DNA of 10,428 bases from a virus, in UHGV virus genome UHGV-0062899. One strand, given 5' to 3'. The stretch's first letter is position 1; the number at the start of each line of letters is the position of its first letter. Shown here piece after piece: positions 1-10,428 of the stretch. The position numbers and the translations under genes are program-made. The notes below the pieces were generated by a model, which did no database searches, was not told the DNA's origin, and worked only from the letters and a program-made list of their open reading frames with translations.

Positions 1-1132
1 CCGCCCACCACTGCATCATTTCTCTGCGCTTATCGAAATACTGAGCATGGTTGTATATTCCGCGCACAGATCCTCCGTTGGCATGTGCCAGTTGCACTTC
101 AATAGCGTCAGCAGGCCATTCGTGCTCGTTCATAATCGTGCTGAATTCATGCCTGAATCCGTGACCGCTTTCCAGACCTTCATAGCCGATTTGTTTGATC
201 ACAAGCAGTACCGCGTTCTCGCAGATTGGCTTCTTCTTATCGTTGCGACCGGCAAAAACAAACTCTGATACTGGTTTGGTGATTGAGCTTAGCGTAGTGA
301 GAAGTTCAACCACCTGGTCTGACATAGGAACCACATGAATTTTGCGTCCCTTCATCACACTGGCGTCGATGGTGATAATCCTGTTTTCAAAATCGACGTT
401 CTTCCATAGCATGGAACGAAGCTCTTTTGTTCTGAGGGCTGTGTAGCGTAAAACTTTGGTCGCAATGAGCGATACGATGCTTCCTGAAAATGTTGCCAGT
501 GCTTTGTTAAATGCCGGGATCTGGTCTGCAGGAAGAAACGGGAAGTTTTTCTTGCGGTATCCCTTCATGGCGTCAGCAAGGTCAGGTGCCGGGTTATATT
601 TAGCCCTACCAGTGACAATAGCGTAACGGAAAACCTCTCCGCATCTTCTGCGGGCTTTATTTGCTCGCTCCATTGCACCGCGATCTTCAAATCTGCGGAT
701 TACTTCCAGCAGTTGCATCGGCTCAATCTCCTGAATTTCAAGGCCGCCGATGATAGGTAAAATGTCGTCATCAAACATTTTTGCAAGTTCAGTCGCATAC
801 CCTACTGACCATACTTGCTTCTTGTGCTCGTACCATTCCTTGTAAATCGCACTAAAGGAATTGTTGTTAGACGAAGCCTTTTTCGCCTTTACCGGATCGA
901 TGCCAACCGAGATGTCTTTCCTCGCAGTCCATGCCTTATCCCTTGCCTCCTGCAAAGTCATTAGCGGATATTTTCCTACGGTCAGGATTTTCTCCTTACC
1001 GTCAATCTTGTAGCGAAGCTGCCATACCTTTTTCCCGGATACAGGGACATAAAGGTACAGGCCATTACCATCGAGAAGGCGGTATGGTTTTTCTTTCGGC
1101 TTTGCTGCTTCAATCTGCTTAACAGTGAGCAT
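1..1132 (-). CDS. int: P4-type tyrosine integrase, partial (C-terminal end beyond window start)
   Basis: Minus-strand frame open from ATG at 1130-1132 to the window edge; absent from the ORF track because it runs off the end. Translation starts MLTVKQIEAAKPKEKPYRLLDGNGLYLYVPVSGKKVWQLRYKIDGKEK, the arm-binding N-domain pattern of P4/CP4-57-type integrases. Near the window start it reads HGFRHEFSTIMNEHEWPADAIEVQLAHANGGSVRGIYNHAQYFDKRREMMQWW, giving the H-x-x-R box and catalytic Tyr region. About 377 codons are present; the last ~30-40 are missing. Confidence 0.9.
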   Translation of the reverse strand, partial: MLTVKQIEAAKPKEKPYRLLDGNGLYLYVPVSGKKVWQLRYKIDGKEKILTVGKYPLMTLQEARDKAWTARKDISVGIDPVKAKKASSNNNSFSAIYKEWYEHKKQVWSVGYATELAKMFDDDILPIIGGLEIQEIEPMQLLEVIRRFEDRGAMERANKARRRCGEVFRYAIVTGRAKYNPAPDLADAMKGYRKKNFPFLPADQIPAFNKALATFSGSIVSLIATKVLRYTALRTKELRSMLWKNVDFENRIITIDASVMKGRKIHVVPMSDQVVELLTTLSSITKPVSEFVFAGRNDKKKPICENAVLLVIKQIGYEGLESGHGFRHEFSTIMNEHEWPADAIEVQLAHANGGSVRGIYNHAQYFDKRREMMQWWA

Positions 1133-1148
1133 GGGTAAAAATCCGGTG

Positions 1149-1166
1149 GGATAAATTATTTTATCC
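1149..1166. promoter_or_regulatory. Inverted repeat GGATAAA-TTAT-TTTATCC just upstream of the integrase start
   Basis: Perfect 7-bp arms with 4-bp spacer, 17 bp upstream of the int ATG, in an AT-rich leader with no strong Shine-Dalgarno. Function as operator or IHF-like site is inferred only. Confidence 0.3.
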
Positions 1167-1293
1167 ACTTTTTACCCGTCATGGAGTGCGGCTGTCAACG
1201 ATCTGAAGCGAACCATGACGAACTATGAATCTACGGAAGGCTTGATATTAAGGGGGTTTTGCGGACTGGTACGGATGGGAGCGAACTGATAAA

Positions 1294-1316
1294 TGGCGTC
1301 CCTGCAGGAATCGTCT
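1294..1316 (-). other. Candidate att core: tRNA 3-prime-end-like fragment (T-arm/acceptor/CCA-like)
   Basis: Minus strand reads GACGATTCCTGCAGGGACGCCA, resembling the end of a tRNA (GATTCC T-loop-like, 7-nt acceptor-like, ends CCA). From memory it resembles a tRNA-Arg-type 3-prime end. The adjacent ~75 nt are AT-rich and cannot fold as a tRNA body, so this is a fragment. It lies ~160 bp upstream of the P4-type int, where P4-like attP cores sit. Confidence 0.35.
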
Positions 1317-1477: not shown

Positions 1478-1711
1478 TTACAGCGTTTTTTCCTGGTGGC
1501 TGATCGGGAACTTGTCCGGTGGAAGGGCTTCAAGGGTATGTGATGGCAAATCGGGACGGTTAAGCGTGCAGTAAATCTCTGTCATAGAGATAAACGTCAG
1601 GCCACACTTAAGGTTCTGGCACTGATGATAGCTTTTTCTTACCAGGTCGCTGAGTTCAACGCTGGTTCTTGTCTTCGCCGTTGCATGGCATTGAGGGCAA
1701 CGCATAGCCAT
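1478..1711 (-). CDS. Ogr/Delta-family zinc-finger late transcription activator (77 aa)
   Basis: MAMRCPQCHATAKTRTSVELSDLVRKSYHQCQNLKCGLTF has the C-x2-C-x22-C-x4-C spacing and the RTS / YHQCQN motifs of P2 Ogr and P4 Delta. GAGGAG Shine-Dalgarno sits 8 nt upstream of the ATG. Confidence 0.85.
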   Translation of the reverse strand: MAMRCPQCHATAKTRTSVELSDLVRKSYHQCQNLKCGLTFISMTEIYCTLNRPDLPSHTLEALPPDKFPISHQEKTL

Positions 1712-1779: not shown

Positions 1780-2817
1780 TTAACGCTGATCGTTACCCCA
1801 GATAATCCCTTCAATCAGGCATCCCTTGCCGTAGTCTTCGACCACATAGGCGTTATTCCACGAATCATAGGTTGAGACGCGGTTAAATTCCGGTTCTTCC
1901 GAGATTTTGCGGCGGTGTGTTCCTGTTTGCCAGTACAAAGACAGATTATCAAGCGAAGTAACCAGCATCGCATTTTGAGGAAAGAACGGAATTGGGCAAA
2001 CGGGAAGCCCTCCGATCTGACGGTTCTCATTTTGTAATGCTAAAGCGAGCAACTCTTTATTTGGTGTCACTCCAAGATTATTAACAAAGGGATAATACTT
2101 TCCTGTAATCAATGAGAGATTACAAATAACAACAAGATCTGAATCCCCGGTGTGCCACGGATCTAATAATTCCTGATATGCCTCCATCGTCAGAGAGTCA
2201 ATAGTACCGTAATCCCCGCTGGACTCGATAATATTGGCGTTATTGCGGCGACTGACCGATACACCATTAACCACGCGGGCTGAGGCATTTCGCCGCCACT
2301 TTTCTAACCAGCCGGTATTAACATCCTGAAGCAACGGGTTAGCAGTAATATCTGATTTAGCCGCATGGTGAGTGCCATAAATGCCAGTCAGTATTACATC
2401 CAGTGCCTGACGGCGATAAATCTGGCTCTCCATATGCCCGAAGAAATTATCAAGGCCCGCCCACTGATCCAGTTTCTCATAAGAAACATAGGTATCAGTA
2501 TTCACCTGCTCACAACGGTATCGGTCAGTCTCTGCTGTACAACCTTGTACGGGCTGGCGTGCCTCTGTCGTTGAGTTGTTCGTACTGGACAGCGGTACAG
2601 ATGTAAGCCCGATCGACTCTTCTTCCTGCTCGTCCACTTCCAGAATATTTATCTGTTTAAGTAAATCTGCGCTTTCCTGCATCTTATCAACAATAGTTTG
2701 CGATGCAGATGGTGTAAGTGAAAAGGAAATCCCATCCAGCTTTGAACTGTTCAGCTTATTTTGTGATGCCTGCAATAAGCACCATGCATCATATTTTTCT
2801 CTGGTGCTGTTTTTCAT
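1780..2817 (-). CDS. P2 gpN-family major capsid protein homolog (345 aa)
   Basis: Conserved blocks match my recollection of P2 gpN along the whole length: MQESADLLKQINI, RQP, RYRCEQVNTDTY, NPLLQDVNTGWLEKWR, SGDYGTIDSLTMEA, DPWHTGDSDLVVI, GKYYPFVNN, LDNLSLYW, THRRKISEEPEFNRV, YVVEDYGKGCLIE. Length is close to gpN (about 357 aa). GGAG lies ~10 nt upstream of the ATG. Confidence 0.75.
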   Translation of the reverse strand: MKNSTREKYDAWCLLQASQNKLNSSKLDGISFSLTPSASQTIVDKMQESADLLKQINILEVDEQEEESIGLTSVPLSSTNNSTTEARQPVQGCTAETDRYRCEQVNTDTYVSYEKLDQWAGLDNFFGHMESQIYRRQALDVILTGIYGTHHAAKSDITANPLLQDVNTGWLEKWRRNASARVVNGVSVSRRNNANIIESSGDYGTIDSLTMEAYQELLDPWHTGDSDLVVICNLSLITGKYYPFVNNLGVTPNKELLALALQNENRQIGGLPVCPIPFFPQNAMLVTSLDNLSLYWQTGTHRRKISEEPEFNRVSTYDSWNNAYVVEDYGKGCLIEGIIWGNDQR

Positions 2818-2854: not shown

Positions 2855-3592
2855 CTATTTTCTGAATGGCTCAATCCCCGCCGCCAGTCTCTTCTTATAA
2901 TCCATATCAGAGCGTGCTTTAGATTCCTGAATTGGCGAAGGACTGTTATTTAACGCATGGTTAATACTGCCAGACAATGCACCGGGGAAAAATGCCAGTA
3001 CAGGATCGCTGAAAAGACTACTGTCAGCATCACTCAATAATTCACGTACAACCGTTCTGGAGTCAACGCGAAGTAACTTCATAAATTCATCTGATAATAT
3101 TCTTTCTGCATCACTGGTGTTTAATCCTGCCAGAGAATAAAGCCCAATGACGACAGACAATCGCTCACCAACCAGCGCTCTGAGGTCGTCTTTAAGAGAC
3201 TGGAGAAAAGAATCCGCAATCACTGACGAAAGTTTAAAATAAGCCTCTTTCGTCTGGCGTGCCTGGCTTGCGGTTTGAATCCGTAGATCAAGCACCGTCA
3301 GGCTCTGGGATTCAATCAACTCCTGGATTTTTTGAAGCTTTACCATCACCTGCGCTGCGGACAGTGCCGCACCATCTGTTTCCGCACTTTCAACGCCTCC
3401 GTTCCTGAGCAACGCAAGCCCCCAGTCACCGGCACTATGGCCCGCGTTTGACTCCACTTCTATTTTTCGCTTTGTCTCGCTCAGGTTGGCAAGCACCTTC
3501 TCTTCGTCTGAAAGAGACTTATAGGCACGGTCAAATAGCTCTTTCTGCTGCTGGTAACTCACGAGTAATGCCTGCATGTTGTTTTGTGTCAT
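2855..3592 (-). CDS. Alpha-helical protein, possibly a Sid-like external scaffold / capsid size-determination protein (245 aa)
   Basis: Real-looking ORF forming an operon with the two genes downstream. It is rich in L/A/E/Q/S helical segments. Its size (245 aa vs 244 for P4 Sid) and position upstream of an Ogr/Delta-like gene fit Sid, and a segment SAGDWGLALLRNGGVES loosely matches what I recall of Sid. Functional call is tentative. Confidence 0.45.
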   Translation of the reverse strand: MTQNNMQALLVSYQQQKELFDRAYKSLSDEEKVLANLSETKRKIEVESNAGHSAGDWGLALLRNGGVESAETDGAALSAAQVMVKLQKIQELIESQSLTVLDLRIQTASQARQTKEAYFKLSSVIADSFLQSLKDDLRALVGERLSVVIGLYSLAGLNTSDAERILSDEFMKLLRVDSRTVVRELLSDADSSLFSDPVLAFFPGALSGSINHALNNSPSPIQESKARSDMDYKKRLAAGIEPFRK

Positions 3593-3747
3593 CGTCCTGC
3601 ACCTTGTGATTATTGCGATGGGAAAATGATTGCAGGAAAAATAAATCCAGTCGCACCGTTAAGGTTGTCAGGGGTGTACTACACCTATAAGCATCATTCG
3701 TCCCGGACGGTTTGCGCAGATAATGCAGACAGGCCAAAGGAGGAACT

Positions 3748-3957
3748 ATGCCCACATTACCCAGAAATAACAGGTCGGTGCTGAAATCACTGAGGATCCC
3801 CAATGAACTGGATCAGTACATAGTGGCGATGAGCAAGCGAAGTGGTGCGAGCTATTGTCGTTGCCTGATCGAACTGGCCGGTGCGGGTCTGCTGGCTAAA
3901 GGGATCGGGCGAATAGCCGTTCCTGAGATCGATTCCTGCCGGAAACATCGAATATAA
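3748..3957 (+). CDS. Small ribbon-helix-helix-like DNA-binding protein (69 aa), candidate regulator
   Basis: AAGGAGG Shine-Dalgarno 4-5 nt upstream of the ATG. KSLRIPNELDQYIVAMSKRSGASYCRCLIELA fits the beta-strand/helix/helix pattern of Arc/MetJ/CopG-type proteins. It is the only plus-strand gene and is divergent from the morphogenesis operon. A GATAAT -10-like hexamer lies at 3719-3724. Confidence 0.55.
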   Translation: MPTLPRNNRSVLKSLRIPNELDQYIVAMSKRSGASYCRCLIELAGAGLLAKGIGRIAVPEIDSCRKHRI

Positions 3958-4126
3958 CCCCGCCCAGCCCGTACGAGCGGGTGTATTACACATCCAGCCG
4001 CATACGCTCATATGGTACAGATCTGCCCTTGAATCCTTCACGATCTAGCCTGATGGGTGCCGTTCCCTTCAAAAAAATTGATGCATTAACACAAAAAGAT
4101 GTGATCAACTACCAGATGCAATATAA

Positions 4127-4160
4127 GCCTCTCAGAGCCACGCTGAGAGGTGTTTTCATT
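4127..4160 (+). terminator. Rho-independent terminator (plus strand)
   Basis: GCCTCTCAG-AGCCACG-CTGAGAGGT: a 9-bp stem with terminal G-U and 7-nt loop, followed by GTTTTCATT. It lies 170 bp downstream of the RHH-like gene. Confidence 0.5.
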
Positions 4161-4253
4161 ATCCACCTTCCTGCATTACCCATCTATAAAACGCATCACA
4201 TCAAGCCGGAGAATAATCAGGATATGCCATCCTGTCTCACCTCTCAGCGCGCG

Positions 4254-4281
4254 CTTGTTCCCCCGCCTCGCCCGCACGCAG
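4254..4281 (-). other. cos-like site (P2/P4/186-type cohesive-end sequence)
   Basis: Minus strand reads GGCGAGGCGGGGGAACAAGCGCGCGCTGAGAGG. The first 12 nt equal the start of the P2/P4 19-nt cohesive end as I recall it (GGCGAGGCGGGGAAAGCAC), and a CGCGCTGA block follows as I recall for P4. A chance 12-mer match in this window is improbable. Confidence 0.5.
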
Positions 4282-4589
4282 AAAGCCCGCTTTTTTGTGC
4301 AAATGTGCAGTCCGGCCAAAGCCGTGCCCCGTCTGGGCTGGAGTGGCAAAAGTACCATCAAAAAAATTGTGCATTAGCGTGCAAATTTGTGCGGTGATTT
4401 TGCAGCGATCATTTTCACCTTAAAAAGAGCCAAACTCCGGCTGCGCCCGGGCCAGTTATGCACGCTGTTTTCGTGTTGCACAATGTTGATTTATTGCCCT
4501 CGGTGCACGCTGATTTGAAAGTGAAGTGTGAAAAAAGGGTTAACAGAAAAAGAGCTGTTTTACTGAAAAACTGAGGGGAGGTACGGAAG

Positions 4590-4860
4590 TCGGTTACAAC
4601 GGTTACGGGGGTGAAATAATATGCTTAACTCAATGATTTATATTAATTAAATTTGTAACCTTTGTGAGGTTACAAAAGGTTCCATTAAAGTTACACCCAA
4701 TAAAATCAATCAGTTAAATATCTAAGTTGTAACTTTAGATAAGGTTACAGAGTAACCCGATCGTAACCCGGTTGTAACTTTTCCAAGTTGGTGAAAATTA
4801 CATATAAATCAATATAATATATTTATATCTTTACTTTGTAACTTTTGTAACCCGTTTCCG
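4590..4860. repeat. Iteron array (about 12 copies of GGTTACAA/TTGTAACC, both orientations) around an AT-rich core; putative replication origin or integrase arm sites
   Basis: Copies at 4592-4599, 4601-4607, 4653-4660, 4668-4675, 4689-4696, 4736-4743, 4743-4750, 4751-4758, 4761-4768, 4772-4779, 4836-4843 and 4846-4854. An AT-rich stretch at 4795-4835 lies among them. The array is non-coding and sits just downstream of the int2/primase operon. Confidence 0.6.
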
Positions 4861-5127
4861 ATCCCCCCCCTCAAATTCTGGAAAATCTGCTTTTTTTTAA
4901 AAAAGGCTTCTTTTCTGTTAAATGTTTTGTCATTTCGCCAAATGTCCGGCAATGGCTCCACTCCGGCAAACACTGCCACTTACGGCAGTGCTGGCCATAC
5001 ATCGAGTACAGTCATTTTTAACCGTGCTGCAGAACGGTCAGAAACGACGGTGATCCGGGCGATGAGGGCGTAATGCAGAACAGCTAAAAACGAAGGGAAT
5101 ATATCTACGCTACGAGGGAAAGGGGTA

Positions 5128-5147
5128 AACCGGCCCGTCAGCCGGTC
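5128..5147 (-). terminator. Possible terminator hairpin directly after the P2-type integrase stop
   Basis: Minus-strand RNA has a GC-rich stem ACCGGC/GCCGGU with a 5-6 nt loop, followed by UUUACCCCUUUCCC. The stem is short. Confidence 0.35.
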
Positions 5148-5149
5148 AT

Positions 5150-6130
5150 TCAGAGGCTGATTCCGCCAGAAAGGGGATTGAGTGAAACGGCGTGTTGCAG
5201 ATAGTCAGGCGCAACATGCGCATAAACCATCGTCTGCTGGATACTGGCGTGACCAAGAATTTGTTGTAAGGCGATAATATTGCCCCCGTTCATCATGAAC
5301 CAGCTTGCAAACGTATGGCGAAGCACATGCGTAGCCTGCCCGCGCGGCAGGTCCGGCTTAACCTCCCTAAGCCGCCCGCAAAAGGCTTCATAGTCAACGC
5401 TGAACAGCGGCCCGCAATCGCGGGTTTTGATCTCTTTTTCCAGTTCATCCGATATTGGGATCGTGCGCCTCTTCCCGTTTTTGGTTTTAAGAAAAGTTAC
5501 GCGTCCGTGGTTAATCTGCTCTCCCCGCAGTGTGCTGCCTTCTCCCCAGCGTGCGCCGGTGCTGAGGCACAAAAGAGCAACACGGCGATCGTCACCTGTA
5601 AGGGTATTCAATAATCGACTGATTTCCGATTTAGTAAGGTAGGTCATTGCTGCTGGTTTCTCCCTCAATGGCTCCAGCCCTTTACAGGGGTTATCAGCCT
5701 TGAATTCATCCAGTTTTATCAGGGCGCTGAACATACCCGAAAGGCGATATATATCACGGTTGACGGTGGCCGTGCTGATCCCTGAATCCAGCCGCTCGCT
5801 GCGATGCTGCGCGATGATTCGTTTAGTCAGCCGGTTAACTGCCGGGTTGCCCAGGGCTCTGATCGTTTTATCTAGGTGTCGTTTTTCGGCGTTTCCGTTC
5901 TCCAGCGTCCGGCCATACAGCAGCCACCAGATGTTTAGCAGCTCGCTGAGAGTACGCCGATCGGTGCTGGCGCCCAACCACTCTTTTTTATCGGCATTCG
6001 CCATAACATACCGTTCAAAGAGCGCTGCCTCCTGCTTTCTGTCAAAAATCCTGCGAAAGCGCTTACCGCTGCGCCCTCTGGCATAAATATCGACTTCATA
6101 ACGCCCGTCAGCCCGTTTTTTAATGGTCAT
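5150..6130 (-). CDS. int: P2-Int-like tyrosine recombinase, complete (326 aa)
   Basis: N-terminus MTIKKRADGRYEVDIYARGRSGKRFRRIFDRKQEA matches my recollection of P2/186-type integrases. Catalytic set is complete: LSTGARWGE (Arg I), KTKNGKRRTIPIS (Lys), HVLRHTFAS (His/Arg II), LGHASIQQT (His III), MVYAHV (Tyr). GAGGAA Shine-Dalgarno 8 nt upstream; start is 16 nt after the primase stop. Confidence 0.85.
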   Translation of the reverse strand: MTIKKRADGRYEVDIYARGRSGKRFRRIFDRKQEAALFERYVMANADKKEWLGASTDRRTLSELLNIWWLLYGRTLENGNAEKRHLDKTIRALGNPAVNRLTKRIIAQHRSERLDSGISTATVNRDIYRLSGMFSALIKLDEFKADNPCKGLEPLREKPAAMTYLTKSEISRLLNTLTGDDRRVALLCLSTGARWGEGSTLRGEQINHGRVTFLKTKNGKRRTIPISDELEKEIKTRDCGPLFSVDYEAFCGRLREVKPDLPRGQATHVLRHTFASWFMMNGGNIIALQQILGHASIQQTMVYAHVAPDYLQHAVSLNPLSGGISL

Positions 6131-6145
6131 ACTATTGTTCCTCTG

Positions 6146-8815
6146 CTACTGAGCGGCCGGCACTTTAAAAATCCAGCATTTCACCTGCTCAGGCTCTTTC
6201 GGGCCAGCCTCTCCACGCCCCTGATTTGCCAGTCTGGAAACCTCACTTCTTACCGTCTTCTGGCCCGTACACGGCCGCATACGCCCGTTTTTCAGGTAAT
6301 CCTGAATTTCTTTCGCCGGGGGAATATTTACACGCTGCATAGCAGCTATACGCATCAGGTGAGGGAAGTTAATGGCGATCTCGTCGCGATTCTCTTTCCC
6401 AAAATGGTTGACGCCGAAACGCTCCAGGCTATTCAGATAATCAAAGGCATCCCAGAACTCACGAACCACAGGGATATCCGCTTCCAGCGATTTAACCCGC
6501 TCCACCGCCATCACAGTAAGCTGTTCACAGGTGCGATCGAGGCGTTCTGCGGGAATATCCAGAACACAGGTCAGCGCCCTTACACATGCAATCATCTGGG
6601 CATGATTTTTGGCAATTCGGATATGACGAATTTCAGAGTGTTGTTCCAGCCTGATTTTTTCGGCCTCATACACCTCCTGAATAATCGACAATACTGCGCT
6701 TTCCCTGCATACCGCCCGGATCATAAAACCAGATACCTGATCGACCGGCAGACGCTCAAGGCGTTCAGCCGCCGCCCTGGTCAGCGATGACTGACGGCGT
6801 TTATCCGTAAACACATGGATAATACGTTCCAGTATCGCAGGTGAGGCGTTAACGGTGGCATTCTGCGCGATGACAATGCTGCCCCTGAATGGCGGCTCTC
6901 TGGTTTCATTGTTGTTGGTCTTAACACCAATCGCCCGTAATCCGCGCCCGTTGTAGAGCGGTTTTAGCTCATCGAAGTCAAAGCCGCGCAGCTTCTTCGT
7001 GTCTTGGGCGCGATCGCCTTCAAGCAGCACGACGGGAAGGTTTGAGACCTGGGCGAAGTTACGATAAATGCCCGCAACAGAACCCTTTGAAGGGTCAATT
7101 CCCTCATAGCTGTCCCTGCCACAGAGCCGCCAGAGAAAATCAATCAGCGTGGATTTACCTGTTCCCGGTTCACCGATAATCTCCAGAAAGGGAAAGCTGG
7201 CCTGCTGTTCGCGTATCTGTTCAACGAAGAATGTTCCCAGCCAGAATGCCAGCGCGACATAGCCATTTTCACCAAAAGCCGTCCAGATATCATCGGCCCA
7301 GCCTGACGAAAGCGAATTATCATCAGAATTGATATTGATTAACGGGGATCGGCTCAGTGTCTTGATATTCATCCCACCAATCTCAAAGTAATCTTCGCTG
7401 TTCAAGGAGTAGACCTTCCCGTTATGTATCGCCAGCTTATTGAATACCCATGCCCGCCAGTCCCTGTTATACCCAATAAAGTCCTGCGTCCTGACCTCTT
7501 TGATCCGGGGCAGATCCTTTTTAATCAGACCATCGAGCTGCTGGCTGGTTCCGGTATAGAGCGCACCTTTTGCCACATGGAGGAGACGCTTTTTAAACTC
7601 AGACGCAGAAGAGATCTGCCCCGCGGTAAAGGAGTCTTTCACTGCGGGTGTATTGCCTGGAAAGGCGATGCGAAAATAATACCAGGACTCGTCTGTAACT
7701 TCTGAACGCATAAAATACAGCGGTGCGGGGTGACAATTGGCTATTTCCTTAATTGCTCCAGACTCTTTCAATGCAATACTTCTGGCTTCACGTTCATCAT
7801 TAACTTTTTTATCGTTAAGGATACGCTCAACGGCCTTCATATGGCGCTCAATGTCCAGCTTAAACCAGTACACGCAGTTCCCGTATTCGAAGTGAAACTC
7901 AGGGCGTTCATTATGTTCAAACATCCGAAGCGCCTTATCTCGGGCGCTTTCCGCCAGCAACAGATCGCCGTAATAGCGGTACTCTTTCTGGTGTCGTCTG
8001 GTCAGCTTTCCGGTAAGGTGGAGATCGTTCCAGTCAGCTTTATTGCTCCCCTGTGAAGGAAGTGCGGCAACGGCTTTCCAGCCTTGTTCACGGCTCCGCG
8101 CCACATGGCGACGTATGGCTGTTTCCCCTGCTTTCCCATTGTCCAGCGCCCAGACAAGAAACGGCTTTTCTTTGCCCTGGAATTGTTCAGCAAGCGCTTT
8201 AAGCGCGGCTTCCGGGTAGTTTCCGGCAGTCATAATGGAAACGGCAGGGGTGCCGTTCTGATAAAGGCTAATGGCGTCAAAAATCCCCTCAGTTAGCCAG
8301 ATACAACTGACTTTAGCCAGATCCAGCGCTGGCGGAACCCACCAGTGACCGGCGTACTTACCGTGGAAGTTAGCCTTTCGATCAAAGCGTTCTGGCTTGT
8401 CGATAATCCGCTCCCACCAGATACCATCAGACAGGGCAAAGCGAACCGTTGCGCTTCCCATGCCGCCCTTATGGTAGCTTTCCTGCGTATAGCAGCCCTT
8501 TAAGCAGGTAGTATCCAGCCCTCTGGCTTCTCTCAGATAGGCTTCCGCAGCGGCAAAAGGCTGCTCAGGCGTGCTCTCATAGCGATCTGACCATGAGTTA
8601 AATAATTCAGGATAGAGCGATTTTACCGACAGATCAGCGCCGCAATTATTTTCCCGGCCACAGCGCAGCACCCAAGGATTTTCCATGCTGGTAAAGAGTT
8701 CTTTCTTGTTACATTCAGGGCAAATACCTGAGCGCAGATAGCCGTTCTGCTCTTTAAACTGGTAATCATGCACCAGTCGTTTTATGATTTCGGGGCGTAG
8801 ATCTTTTCTGTTCAT
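6146..8815 (-). CDS. Bifunctional primase / P-loop NTPase replication protein (zinc-ribbon + Toprim + Walker A/B), P4 alpha-like (889 aa)
   Basis: N-terminal C-x2-C-x16-C-x5-C zinc ribbon (CPECNKK...RCGRENNC); Toprim-like motifs IWLTEGIFDAISLY and LVWALDNGKAG; Walker A GEPGTGKST with downstream VVLLEGD (Walker B-like). AAGGA Shine-Dalgarno 7 nt upstream of the ATG. Confidence 0.85.
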   Translation of the reverse strand: MNRKDLRPEIIKRLVHDYQFKEQNGYLRSGICPECNKKELFTSMENPWVLRCGRENNCGADLSVKSLYPELFNSWSDRYESTPEQPFAAAEAYLREARGLDTTCLKGCYTQESYHKGGMGSATVRFALSDGIWWERIIDKPERFDRKANFHGKYAGHWWVPPALDLAKVSCIWLTEGIFDAISLYQNGTPAVSIMTAGNYPEAALKALAEQFQGKEKPFLVWALDNGKAGETAIRRHVARSREQGWKAVAALPSQGSNKADWNDLHLTGKLTRRHQKEYRYYGDLLLAESARDKALRMFEHNERPEFHFEYGNCVYWFKLDIERHMKAVERILNDKKVNDEREARSIALKESGAIKEIANCHPAPLYFMRSEVTDESWYYFRIAFPGNTPAVKDSFTAGQISSASEFKKRLLHVAKGALYTGTSQQLDGLIKKDLPRIKEVRTQDFIGYNRDWRAWVFNKLAIHNGKVYSLNSEDYFEIGGMNIKTLSRSPLININSDDNSLSSGWADDIWTAFGENGYVALAFWLGTFFVEQIREQQASFPFLEIIGEPGTGKSTLIDFLWRLCGRDSYEGIDPSKGSVAGIYRNFAQVSNLPVVLLEGDRAQDTKKLRGFDFDELKPLYNGRGLRAIGVKTNNNETREPPFRGSIVIAQNATVNASPAILERIIHVFTDKRRQSSLTRAAAERLERLPVDQVSGFMIRAVCRESAVLSIIQEVYEAEKIRLEQHSEIRHIRIAKNHAQMIACVRALTCVLDIPAERLDRTCEQLTVMAVERVKSLEADIPVVREFWDAFDYLNSLERFGVNHFGKENRDEIAINFPHLMRIAAMQRVNIPPAKEIQDYLKNGRMRPCTGQKTVRSEVSRLANQGRGEAGPKEPEQVKCWIFKVPAAQ

Positions 8816-8854: not shown

Positions 8855-9118
8855 TCACTCTTTGTCTTCTTGTACAGCATGTCCCAGATATTTGTCACAA
8901 ATCCCCAGGCGTTTAACTTCCTGTAGTACTGATGAAATATCTTCACTGATATAACTGAAAATATCCGGTATCCATAAGAGTGGCATCGCGTTAGCTTCAC
9001 ACTGGCGAATATGTAAATGCATCTGAAATGCGACATTCCTCGCGCGATTCAGTTTGTGATAATTCTCAATACTGAGGTGAGACGGATTAACACTCTGAAT
9101 ATGATTACTTGTTGTCAT
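8855..9118 (-). CDS. Hypothetical protein (87 aa)
   Basis: AGAGGA Shine-Dalgarno 5-6 nt upstream of the ATG; same strand as the replication operon; no family recognised. Confidence 0.5.
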   Translation of the reverse strand: MTTSNHIQSVNPSHLSIENYHKLNRARNVAFQMHLHIRQCEANAMPLLWIPDIFSYISEDISSVLQEVKRLGICDKYLGHAVQEDKE

Positions 9119-10266: not shown

Positions 10267-10307
10267 AGTCACCACCGGAGTTTCCACGCTCATGATTGGT
10301 GGTGACA
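10267..10307. promoter_or_regulatory. Dyad symmetry element upstream of the small-ORF cassette; candidate operator
   Basis: AGTCACCACC (10267-10276) and GGTGGTGACT (10298-10307): perfect 10-bp inverted arms with a 21-bp spacer, ~30 bp upstream of the g1 start. A near-palindrome TCATCATAATGATGA (10231-10245) covers the start codon. Confidence 0.3.
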
Positions 10308-10428
10308 CTGACAGGGGTGGAAATACCGGCGTACAAGGAGACCGGCCAGCCCGAAAGCTGCCCTGCCAGAGCCACCATTGATACTGCGCGGATCTGCTCC
10401 GCTGAATATGGTGGCACTGATTTAACGA

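Follow-up and report, generated by a model that had tools for sequence, protein, structure and literature searches.

A putative SEN4/SEN5-type cos site in a P4-like satellite that encodes a P2-family capsid protein

Does a 12-nt match to the start of the P2/P4 cohesive end, found in a 10,428-nt stretch of the virus genome UHGV-0062899 (hereafter, the window), mark a site at which DNA is packaged, and if so, by whose terminase and for what kind of element? Monomeric P4 circles are cut by the helper terminase at cos, which P4 has in common with P2 (PMC2231350; PMC9122126), and the helper's cut leaves 19-nt cohesive ends (PMC9594776). A common 55-bp cos with 19-nt 5′ cohesive ends is attributed for P2, P4 and 186 to Ziermann and Calendar (1990), as quoted in later papers (PMC9594776; PMC2231350). 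An earlier note on this DNA had proposed that the match belongs to such a site. The 12-mer, GGCGAGGCGGGG, is present as described, at 4261–4272 on the minus strand and as a single copy in the window. The further block reported downstream is real as well (CGCGCTGA, 4244–4251, minus strand; seen in the sequence and in alignments), but it lies 3 nt outside the range of 4254–4281 given for the site. It follows directly after a 19-mer and is in register with GCGCGCTGA, the sequence after the 19-mer of P2. A chance origin draws on shuffled windows, where GGCGAGGCGGGG with at most one mismatch is expected 0.06 times per window and occurred at least once in 10 of 200 shuffles (5%).

Read on the minus strand, the site runs from GCGTGCG through GGCGAGGCGGGGGAACAAG into CGCGCGCTGAGAGG. 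The central 19-mer (4254–4272, minus strand), which has the start GGCG(A/T)GGCGGGG, is the predicted cohesive end. It agrees with the reported SEN4/SEN5 sticky end, ggcgaggcgggggaacgag (PMC5261728), at 18 of 19 positions, compared with 15/19 for P2 and P4 and 14/19 for 186, and the canonical P2/P4 19-mer, GGCGAGGCGGGGAAAGCAC, has no match in the window within three mismatches. In the record for 186, the 19-mer has the top-strand cut at its 5′ end and the bottom-strand cut at its 3′ end, giving 5′ overhangs; by analogy, the predicted minus-strand nick is 5′ of 4272 and the plus-strand nick opposite 4254, again with a 5′ overhang. Aligned without gaps in a frame of −30 to +25, the 55-bp core matched SEN5 at 53/55 positions and three E. 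coli prophages at 42–52/55. Alignment to P2, P4 and 186, the comparison by which the earlier note had wanted its match judged, gave 36/55, 36/55 and 33/55, above the best score in 200 window shuffles (31–32), and the 28 nt before the nick differ from P2 throughout.

Similarity to phage cos junctions extends over a block of ~175 bp (4231–4407, about −135 to +42 from the nick), which is 77–83% identical to SEN4/5, to E. coli prophages and to 23 IMG/VR contigs. With a 271-nt query around the site, BLAST returned the right end of SEN4/SEN5 (77% over 130 nt, E = 3e-19), in an alignment that halts at the last base of the SEN5 record, equivalent to the 4272/4273 boundary. The left end is found in the first 42 nt of the same record, which opens with GGCGAGGCGGGGGAACGAGCGCGCGCTGAGGGG and aligns to 4231–4272 at 90%. 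The SEN4/5 ends were probably assigned from their similarity to P2 and not mapped; the methods name only Ion Torrent assembly (PMC5261728). Among 5426 complete E. coli genomes, 43 (~0.8%) matched the block, at up to 83% over ~175 nt and with E-values reaching 5e-36. The three loci that we opened were all P2-like prophages, with the match ~190 nt after the portal gene, and the counterpart sits in each between the portal gene and the gpA-side arm, the canonical position of cos (n = 3). An exact pattern of the 44-nt core found the 23 IMG/VR contigs, all of them P2-like phages with the same portal, terminase or gpA; the portal gene adjoins cos in 21 of the 23, these being the 21 whose fetched stretch includes it. 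The match thus outlasts a chance GC-rich 12-mer, the outcome that would have undone the earlier proposal: chance is refuted by the BLAST matches (E = 3e-19 to 5e-36 over 130–178 nt, with targets at phage cos positions) together with the comparison of the 55-bp core.

We then aligned nine cos junctions at the nick and compared their flanks: those of the window and another copy of the satellite, of SEN5 and three prophages, and of P2, P4 and 186. GCGCGC directly follows the 19-mer in 9/9, and TGCA stands at −29 in 9/9. All but P2 have a second TGCA at −35 to −38 (8/9), and the window, SEN5, P2, P4 and 186 have further copies at −101 and −111. The window's own copies begin at 4298, 4306, 4370, 4380 and 4401, and form a proximal pair followed by an A-run (4298–4309, 29 and 37 nt from the nick) and a distal group (4370–4404; 101, 111 and 132 nt). 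At about −140 to −160, close to where the aligned region starts, T-runs occur in SEN5, locus L011, P2, P4 and 186. Judged by this shared spacing, the TGCA repeats to the right of the 19-mer are elements of cos, and they are plausibly the recognition sites of the terminase; the papers searched name no binding site for that enzyme.

The earlier note had placed an iteron region beside the site. The TGCA repeats next to the 19-mer belong to cos, and a denser, separate array of GTAAC/GTTAC lies at 4593–4851 in AT-rich DNA (36% GC), with 12 of the 27 copies in the window falling within 281 nt (0.7 expected). This array is a candidate replication origin for the 889-aa primase-helicase described below, or a candidate set of arm sites for the second integrase; the region had no blastn similarity to the helper attP, and nothing attP-like was found downstream of the second integrase. 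Repeats that contain TGCA can also be read as iterons or operators, but their offsets are kept family-wide and the GTAAC array is the better iteron candidate. We therefore give next to no credence to the view that the site is a chance 12-mer or a group of replication or regulatory repeats with no packaging role.

The cos block is non-coding, adjoins the head-gene cluster and lies between converging transcription units, with a terminator-like structure on either side. To the right, a hairpin with a T-run (4428–4442, minus strand) would halt leftward transcription from the primase and integrase genes before it reached cos. To the left, a hairpin (4127–4151, plus strand; −16.4 kcal/mol, z = −2.2) follows the 69-aa open reading frame (ORF) and is terminator-like; it may keep rightward transcription from reaching cos, as a counterpart of tQ of P2, which lies between gene Q and cosL at 160–181 from cosL. 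There were no Rfam matches in 3900–5200. A perfect 12-nt inverted repeat pairs 4141–4152 with 4238–4249 (CGCTGAGAGGTG and CACCTCTCAGCG), and thereby connects the terminator hairpin, by its 3′ arm, with the left flank of cos. The left flank of P2 likewise has an inverted CGCGCTGA...TCAGCGCG.

The gene set of the window recurs on four metagenome-assembled contigs. Conservation of cos within this family was judged from the two other copies that span the site, L014, which is nearly identical to the window, and L013, with 7% difference from it across the non-coding region. Segment by segment, L013 and the window are identical at 95.5% of positions in the cos block (4231–4407), 88.6% in 4161–4230, 79.9% in 3958–4120 and 63.5% in 4407–4530. 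Thus, among the non-coding stretches, conservation between the two satellite copies is highest in the cos block, and the limits of this island coincide with the limits of the similarity to phages. Three more TGCAC motifs at 4458–4508 lie outside the block and are not conserved in L013.

Packaging by a P2-like helper terminase, as the earlier note had proposed, is supported by the homology, the motif spacing, the synteny described below, the terminators and the conserved island. The type of helper needs revision: the P2-like family holds, but the site points to phages like SEN4/SEN5 (Senquatrovirus, Peduoviridae) and not to P2 or P4 proper (53/55 against 36/55). SEN4, SEN5 and the related E. 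coli prophages have the same TGCA offsets, the same GCGCGCTGA block and the same orientation to a divergent late promoter and a capsid gene. P2, P4 and 186 resemble the window in the GGCGAGGCGGGG start, GCGCGC, the TGCA motifs at −29, −101 and −111, a T-run ~140–150 nt upstream and converging transcription units; they differ from it at positions 13–19 of the overhang and in the 28 nt before the nick. P4 uses several P2-like helpers. One could accordingly suppose that the cos is of the classical P2/P4 type and that packaging is by P2, 186 or close relatives of these, not by SEN4-type phages, and the shared first 12 nt, GCGCGC and TGCA offsets, along with a second P2-family match in the host genome, fit that view. 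We consider it unlikely, given the 15/19 overhang and 36/55 core against 53/55 for SEN5, the differing 28 nt before the nick, and an integrase and activator-site sequence that point to the SEN4 lineage.

The exact 19-mer of the window, ending in GAACAAG, is restricted to the three satellite copies and identical to that of no phage, SEN4/SEN5 included. Phage variants end in GAATGAG (22 copies), GAACGAG (3), GAACCAT (1) or GAGCAAG (1). Position 16 varies among phages whose terminases are near-identical (97–100% to one reference prophage). Judged by all these variants, positions 14–19 of the 19-mer seem to tolerate change. A SEN4-type cos block also occurs in a separate 32,330-bp record of an E. 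coli assembly, NZ_JBQJRQ010000002.1, which probably represents a P2-like phage from the candidate helper lineage, assembled as its own replicon.

What carries this site? The window is 99.5% identical to the chromosome of E. coli KCJ3K291 (NZ_CP054407.1), the only one of the 5426 complete E. coli genomes in which most of it is present. In that locus (L001), 22-nt direct repeats 11,627 bp apart set the limits of an integrated element, compared with 11,624 bp for P4. One repeat is in the window (1293–1314), and its partner, in tRNA-Arg(CCT), is outside. From the tRNA, the gene order is an arm-type integrase (419–420 aa), AlpA (PF05930) and an Ash/Icd-like gene (PF10554, Phage_ASH), these three lying just outside the window, then small ORFs, a primase-helicase, a second integrase, a 1.2-kb non-coding region, the 69-aa ORF on the opposite strand, a 245-aa gene, a capsid gene and Ogr/Delta. 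An 87-aa ORF at 8855–9118 matches PF25738 (‘Derepression’). The primase-helicase (6146–8815, 889 aa, Toprim and P-loop, phrog_1139) resembles P4 alpha in local motifs only (E = 0.007). A C4/CI-type antisense RNA at 10295–10382 on the minus strand (Rfam RF01695, 79 bits) is, by its sequence, a P4-type immunity RNA. Because of this gene set, and because the RNA is 77% identical in DNA to the P4 cI immunity region, the backbone of the element is P4-like. The ORFs are all intact, and genes for portal, terminase, scaffold (gpO), tail and lysis are missing from the 11.6-kb element. Window positions 1–1313, beside the att repeat, hold an IntS integrase gene of the Sf6/HK620 type, unrelated to the element, and a partial tRNA-Arg; the satellite is inserted in the same argW site as this older prophage remnant.

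The late region to the left of cos combines P4-like and P2-like traits. The 69-aa ORF (3748–3957, plus strand) reads towards cos, takes the place of the portal and terminase genes Q–P, and is conserved in L013 and L014. The RHH label it had been given found no support in Pfam, NCBIfam or PHROG, and its AlphaFold model is of low confidence (pLDDT 64.6). We considered whether it could be a remnant of gpP and rejected this. A 155-nt divergent promoter region holds the window's sole copy of TGT-N12-ACA (3666–3683), which we take to be the consensus of the Ogr/Delta site. The motif recurs at the equivalent place in SEN5, in the SEN4-type prophage L009 and in a Rahnella satellite. In P2 and in 186, a single activator site lies between the divergent late promoters, and by analogy 3666–3683 is a candidate site serving both promoters here.

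The first gene of the late operon encodes a helical protein of 245 aa (2855–3592, minus strand) that is possibly Sid-like. P4 Sid has 244 aa, and the similarity between the two is marginal (BLASTP E = 0.004; hhalign E = 0.003, probability 10%). Its AF2 model (pLDDT 49.7) is too poor for comparison of folds. A search of PDB sequences gave nothing below E = 0.25, the protein database contained just two clusters of such proteins, and scans of GTDB genomes and IMG/VR found no further relatives. Identity as gpO was rejected (E = 0.35). No ORF in the element is Psu-like, and hhalign of the 245-aa family against Psu gave E = 0.54. Next come a full-length major capsid protein of the P2 family (1780–2817, minus strand; 345 aa, PF05125 at 6e-99, 49% identity to the helper-type capsid) and an Ogr/Delta zinc-finger late activator (1478–1711, minus strand; 77 aa, PF04606 at 1e-15). 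In P4, the place of this capsid gene, which is flanked by the Sid-like gene and ogr, is taken by delta and psu. DNA identity to SEN5 is 73–75% for ogr and for the capsid gene at its 3′ end. Read along the minus strand, the order is therefore the TGCA flank, cos, a terminator, a gene that reads towards cos, divergent promoters and capsid-bearing genes that read away from it. This is the P2 order, cos / Q–P / O–N, as found in SEN5 and L009, with the 69-aa ORF standing for Q–P and the 245-aa gene for O. In SEN4/SEN5, cos follows the portal gene, whereas here it follows the 69-aa ORF and terminator; their right flank is a variable region and gpA, whereas here it is the GTAAC array and an integrase.

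The site is far closer to the phage lineage (~80% in nucleotides, 53/55 in the core) than are the structural genes alongside it (capsid, 49% in amino acids). Such a contrast would be expected where cos must satisfy the terminase of a helper. It also bears on whether the site is still in use, since the element might instead be an inactive relic, a decaying mosaic that acquired cos, the late promoter, the capsid gene and the integrase from a P2-like phage by recombination. Several helper-like segments do lie together in the element, which is very rare (1/5426 complete E. coli genomes); there is no cognate cos elsewhere in NZ_CP054407.1, and the 19-mer is identical to that of no phage. Yet all ORFs are intact, the size is exactly P4-like, every family-wide feature of cos is kept, no other non-coding stretch is as well conserved as cos between copies with 7% difference in the region, and the capsid has diverged far more than cos, as matching to a helper terminase predicts. 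We regard decay as quite improbable. Our favored reading, which we hold to be likely, is that 4231–4407 is the cos of an 11.6-kb P4-like satellite, that it copies the cos of SEN4/SEN5-type (Senquatrovirus) phages and that it is used by such a helper.

Since NZ_CP054407.1 has no second SEN4-type cos, no cognate helper is resident there, and since it has one further P2-family match elsewhere in the genome, the element would either await an incoming helper or rely on a less well matched resident one. When a SEN4-type helper grows in the cell, the satellite would leave tRNA-Arg as an 11,627-bp circle and replicate, and its late genes (Sid-like, capsid and Ogr) would be expressed from the divergent promoter with the candidate Ogr/Delta site. 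The helper terminase (homologues of gpM/gpP) would recognize the TGCA-repeat flank and the GC-rich core and nick the circle 19 nt apart at 4254–4272, and the linear molecule would be packaged into a small head; the genome is as long as that of P4, so a small head fits. One end of the linear form would begin with GGCGAGGCGGGGGAACAAG and lead to the 69-aa ORF, Sid-like gene, capsid gene and ogr, and the other would lead to the TGCA repeats, the GTAAC array and the helper-type integrase. The earlier note had also fixed the ends of the linear form here; by homology, they would indeed lie at cos, and the cleavage positions, the identity of the helper and packaging itself are likewise what the comparison with known phages predicts.

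How does this element compare with known satellites? The core set of P4-like satellites in SatelliteFinder is int, psu, delta, sid, alpA, ash/epsilon and alpha, and the element fits most of this definition (PMC10085698). It shares with P4 a length of 11.6 kb, tRNA integration, an arm-type integrase, AlpA, Ash, the C4/CI RNA, Ogr/Delta and a cos of the helper lineage. In contrast to P4, it is without Psu, has a P2-family capsid gene in the late operon and carries an extra, helper-type integrase; its primase-helicase is not detectably related to P4 alpha beyond the local motifs, and its similarity to Sid is, as noted, marginal. The cos of P4 lies between psu and int (PMC8628076), whereas here it is upstream of the late operon, between the divergent-promoter module and the primase and second integrase genes. 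Like the cfPICI, the element is a satellite with its own major capsid protein (PMC10085698). However, cfPICI carry a portal, protease, adaptor/connector, TerS and TerL, whereas here the P2-family capsid protein stands alone, with no terminase gene. Classification as a cfPICI is ruled out by the missing portal, terminase and adaptors, and classification as a P2-like phage (Peduoviridae) by the missing gpQ–L head operon, tail genes and gpA.

We found no description of such a capsid-bearing P4-like satellite in the literature searched. A satellite of the P4 type should have a cos, and the one here is, by its sequence, a P2-family cos of the SEN4 subtype; the satellite around it is the more novel point. 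One tentative reading, to which we give slightly less than even odds, is that cos is one piece of a miniaturized P2 left arm inside a P4-like satellite and that the element, with its Rahnella relative, represents an undescribed kind of satellite. With the same reservation, leaning a little towards doubt, the arm would comprise cos, the terminator, the small ORF, the candidate Ogr/Delta site, the Sid-like gene and capsid gene N, plus ogr and the integrase. It is also possible, though we would stop just short of an even chance, that heads are built from the satellite's own P2-family capsid protein, with a Senquatrovirus-type helper supplying just the portal, terminase and tail. Borrowing goes further in this element, and it could be a minimal satellite with a capsid gene of its own. 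More generally, a cos site predicts which phages can mobilize a satellite, here SEN4-type P2-like phages, a specific and uncommon lineage; it gives an exact, testable pair of DNA ends, and the ~175-bp block is a ready-made packaging signal for cosmid work with that lineage.

The Rahnella relative, in Rahnella sp. ChDrAdgB13 (L020, JAEMGT010000082.1), has the same layout, with a gpA-type replication protein replacing the primase. Besides a capsid protein and Ogr, it encodes a relative, 249 aa long, of the 245-aa protein. The corresponding intergenic region has a candidate cos, GGCGTGGCGGGGGACAGCG, at L020 7897, in inverted orientation with respect to the capsid gene. It is a motif-level candidate, with no match in phage records. 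Between this candidate and the late promoter lies a gene (L020 8332–8658, minus strand) for a stand-alone 108-aa homologue of the N-terminal domain of gpP (32% identity, E = 2e-14), which might modulate the helper terminase.

Finally, the second integrase of the window (5150–6130, minus strand; 326 aa), an intact tyrosine integrase, is of the helper type, with 82% amino acid identity to the integrase of the SEN4-type prophage L009 and 76.5% nucleotide identity to SEN5 int. The SEN4-type prophages with the related integrase adjoin cpxP, whereas the satellite sits at tRNA-Arg by means of a different, P4-type integrase. Near this gene, a stretch of ~90 nt with a hairpin (~4962–5052) is 81–89% similar to two intergenic places in SEN5, and 73–75% similar to a third place in SEN5 and to one in L009. 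From these matches, it looks like a small repeated intergenic element common to the helper lineage.
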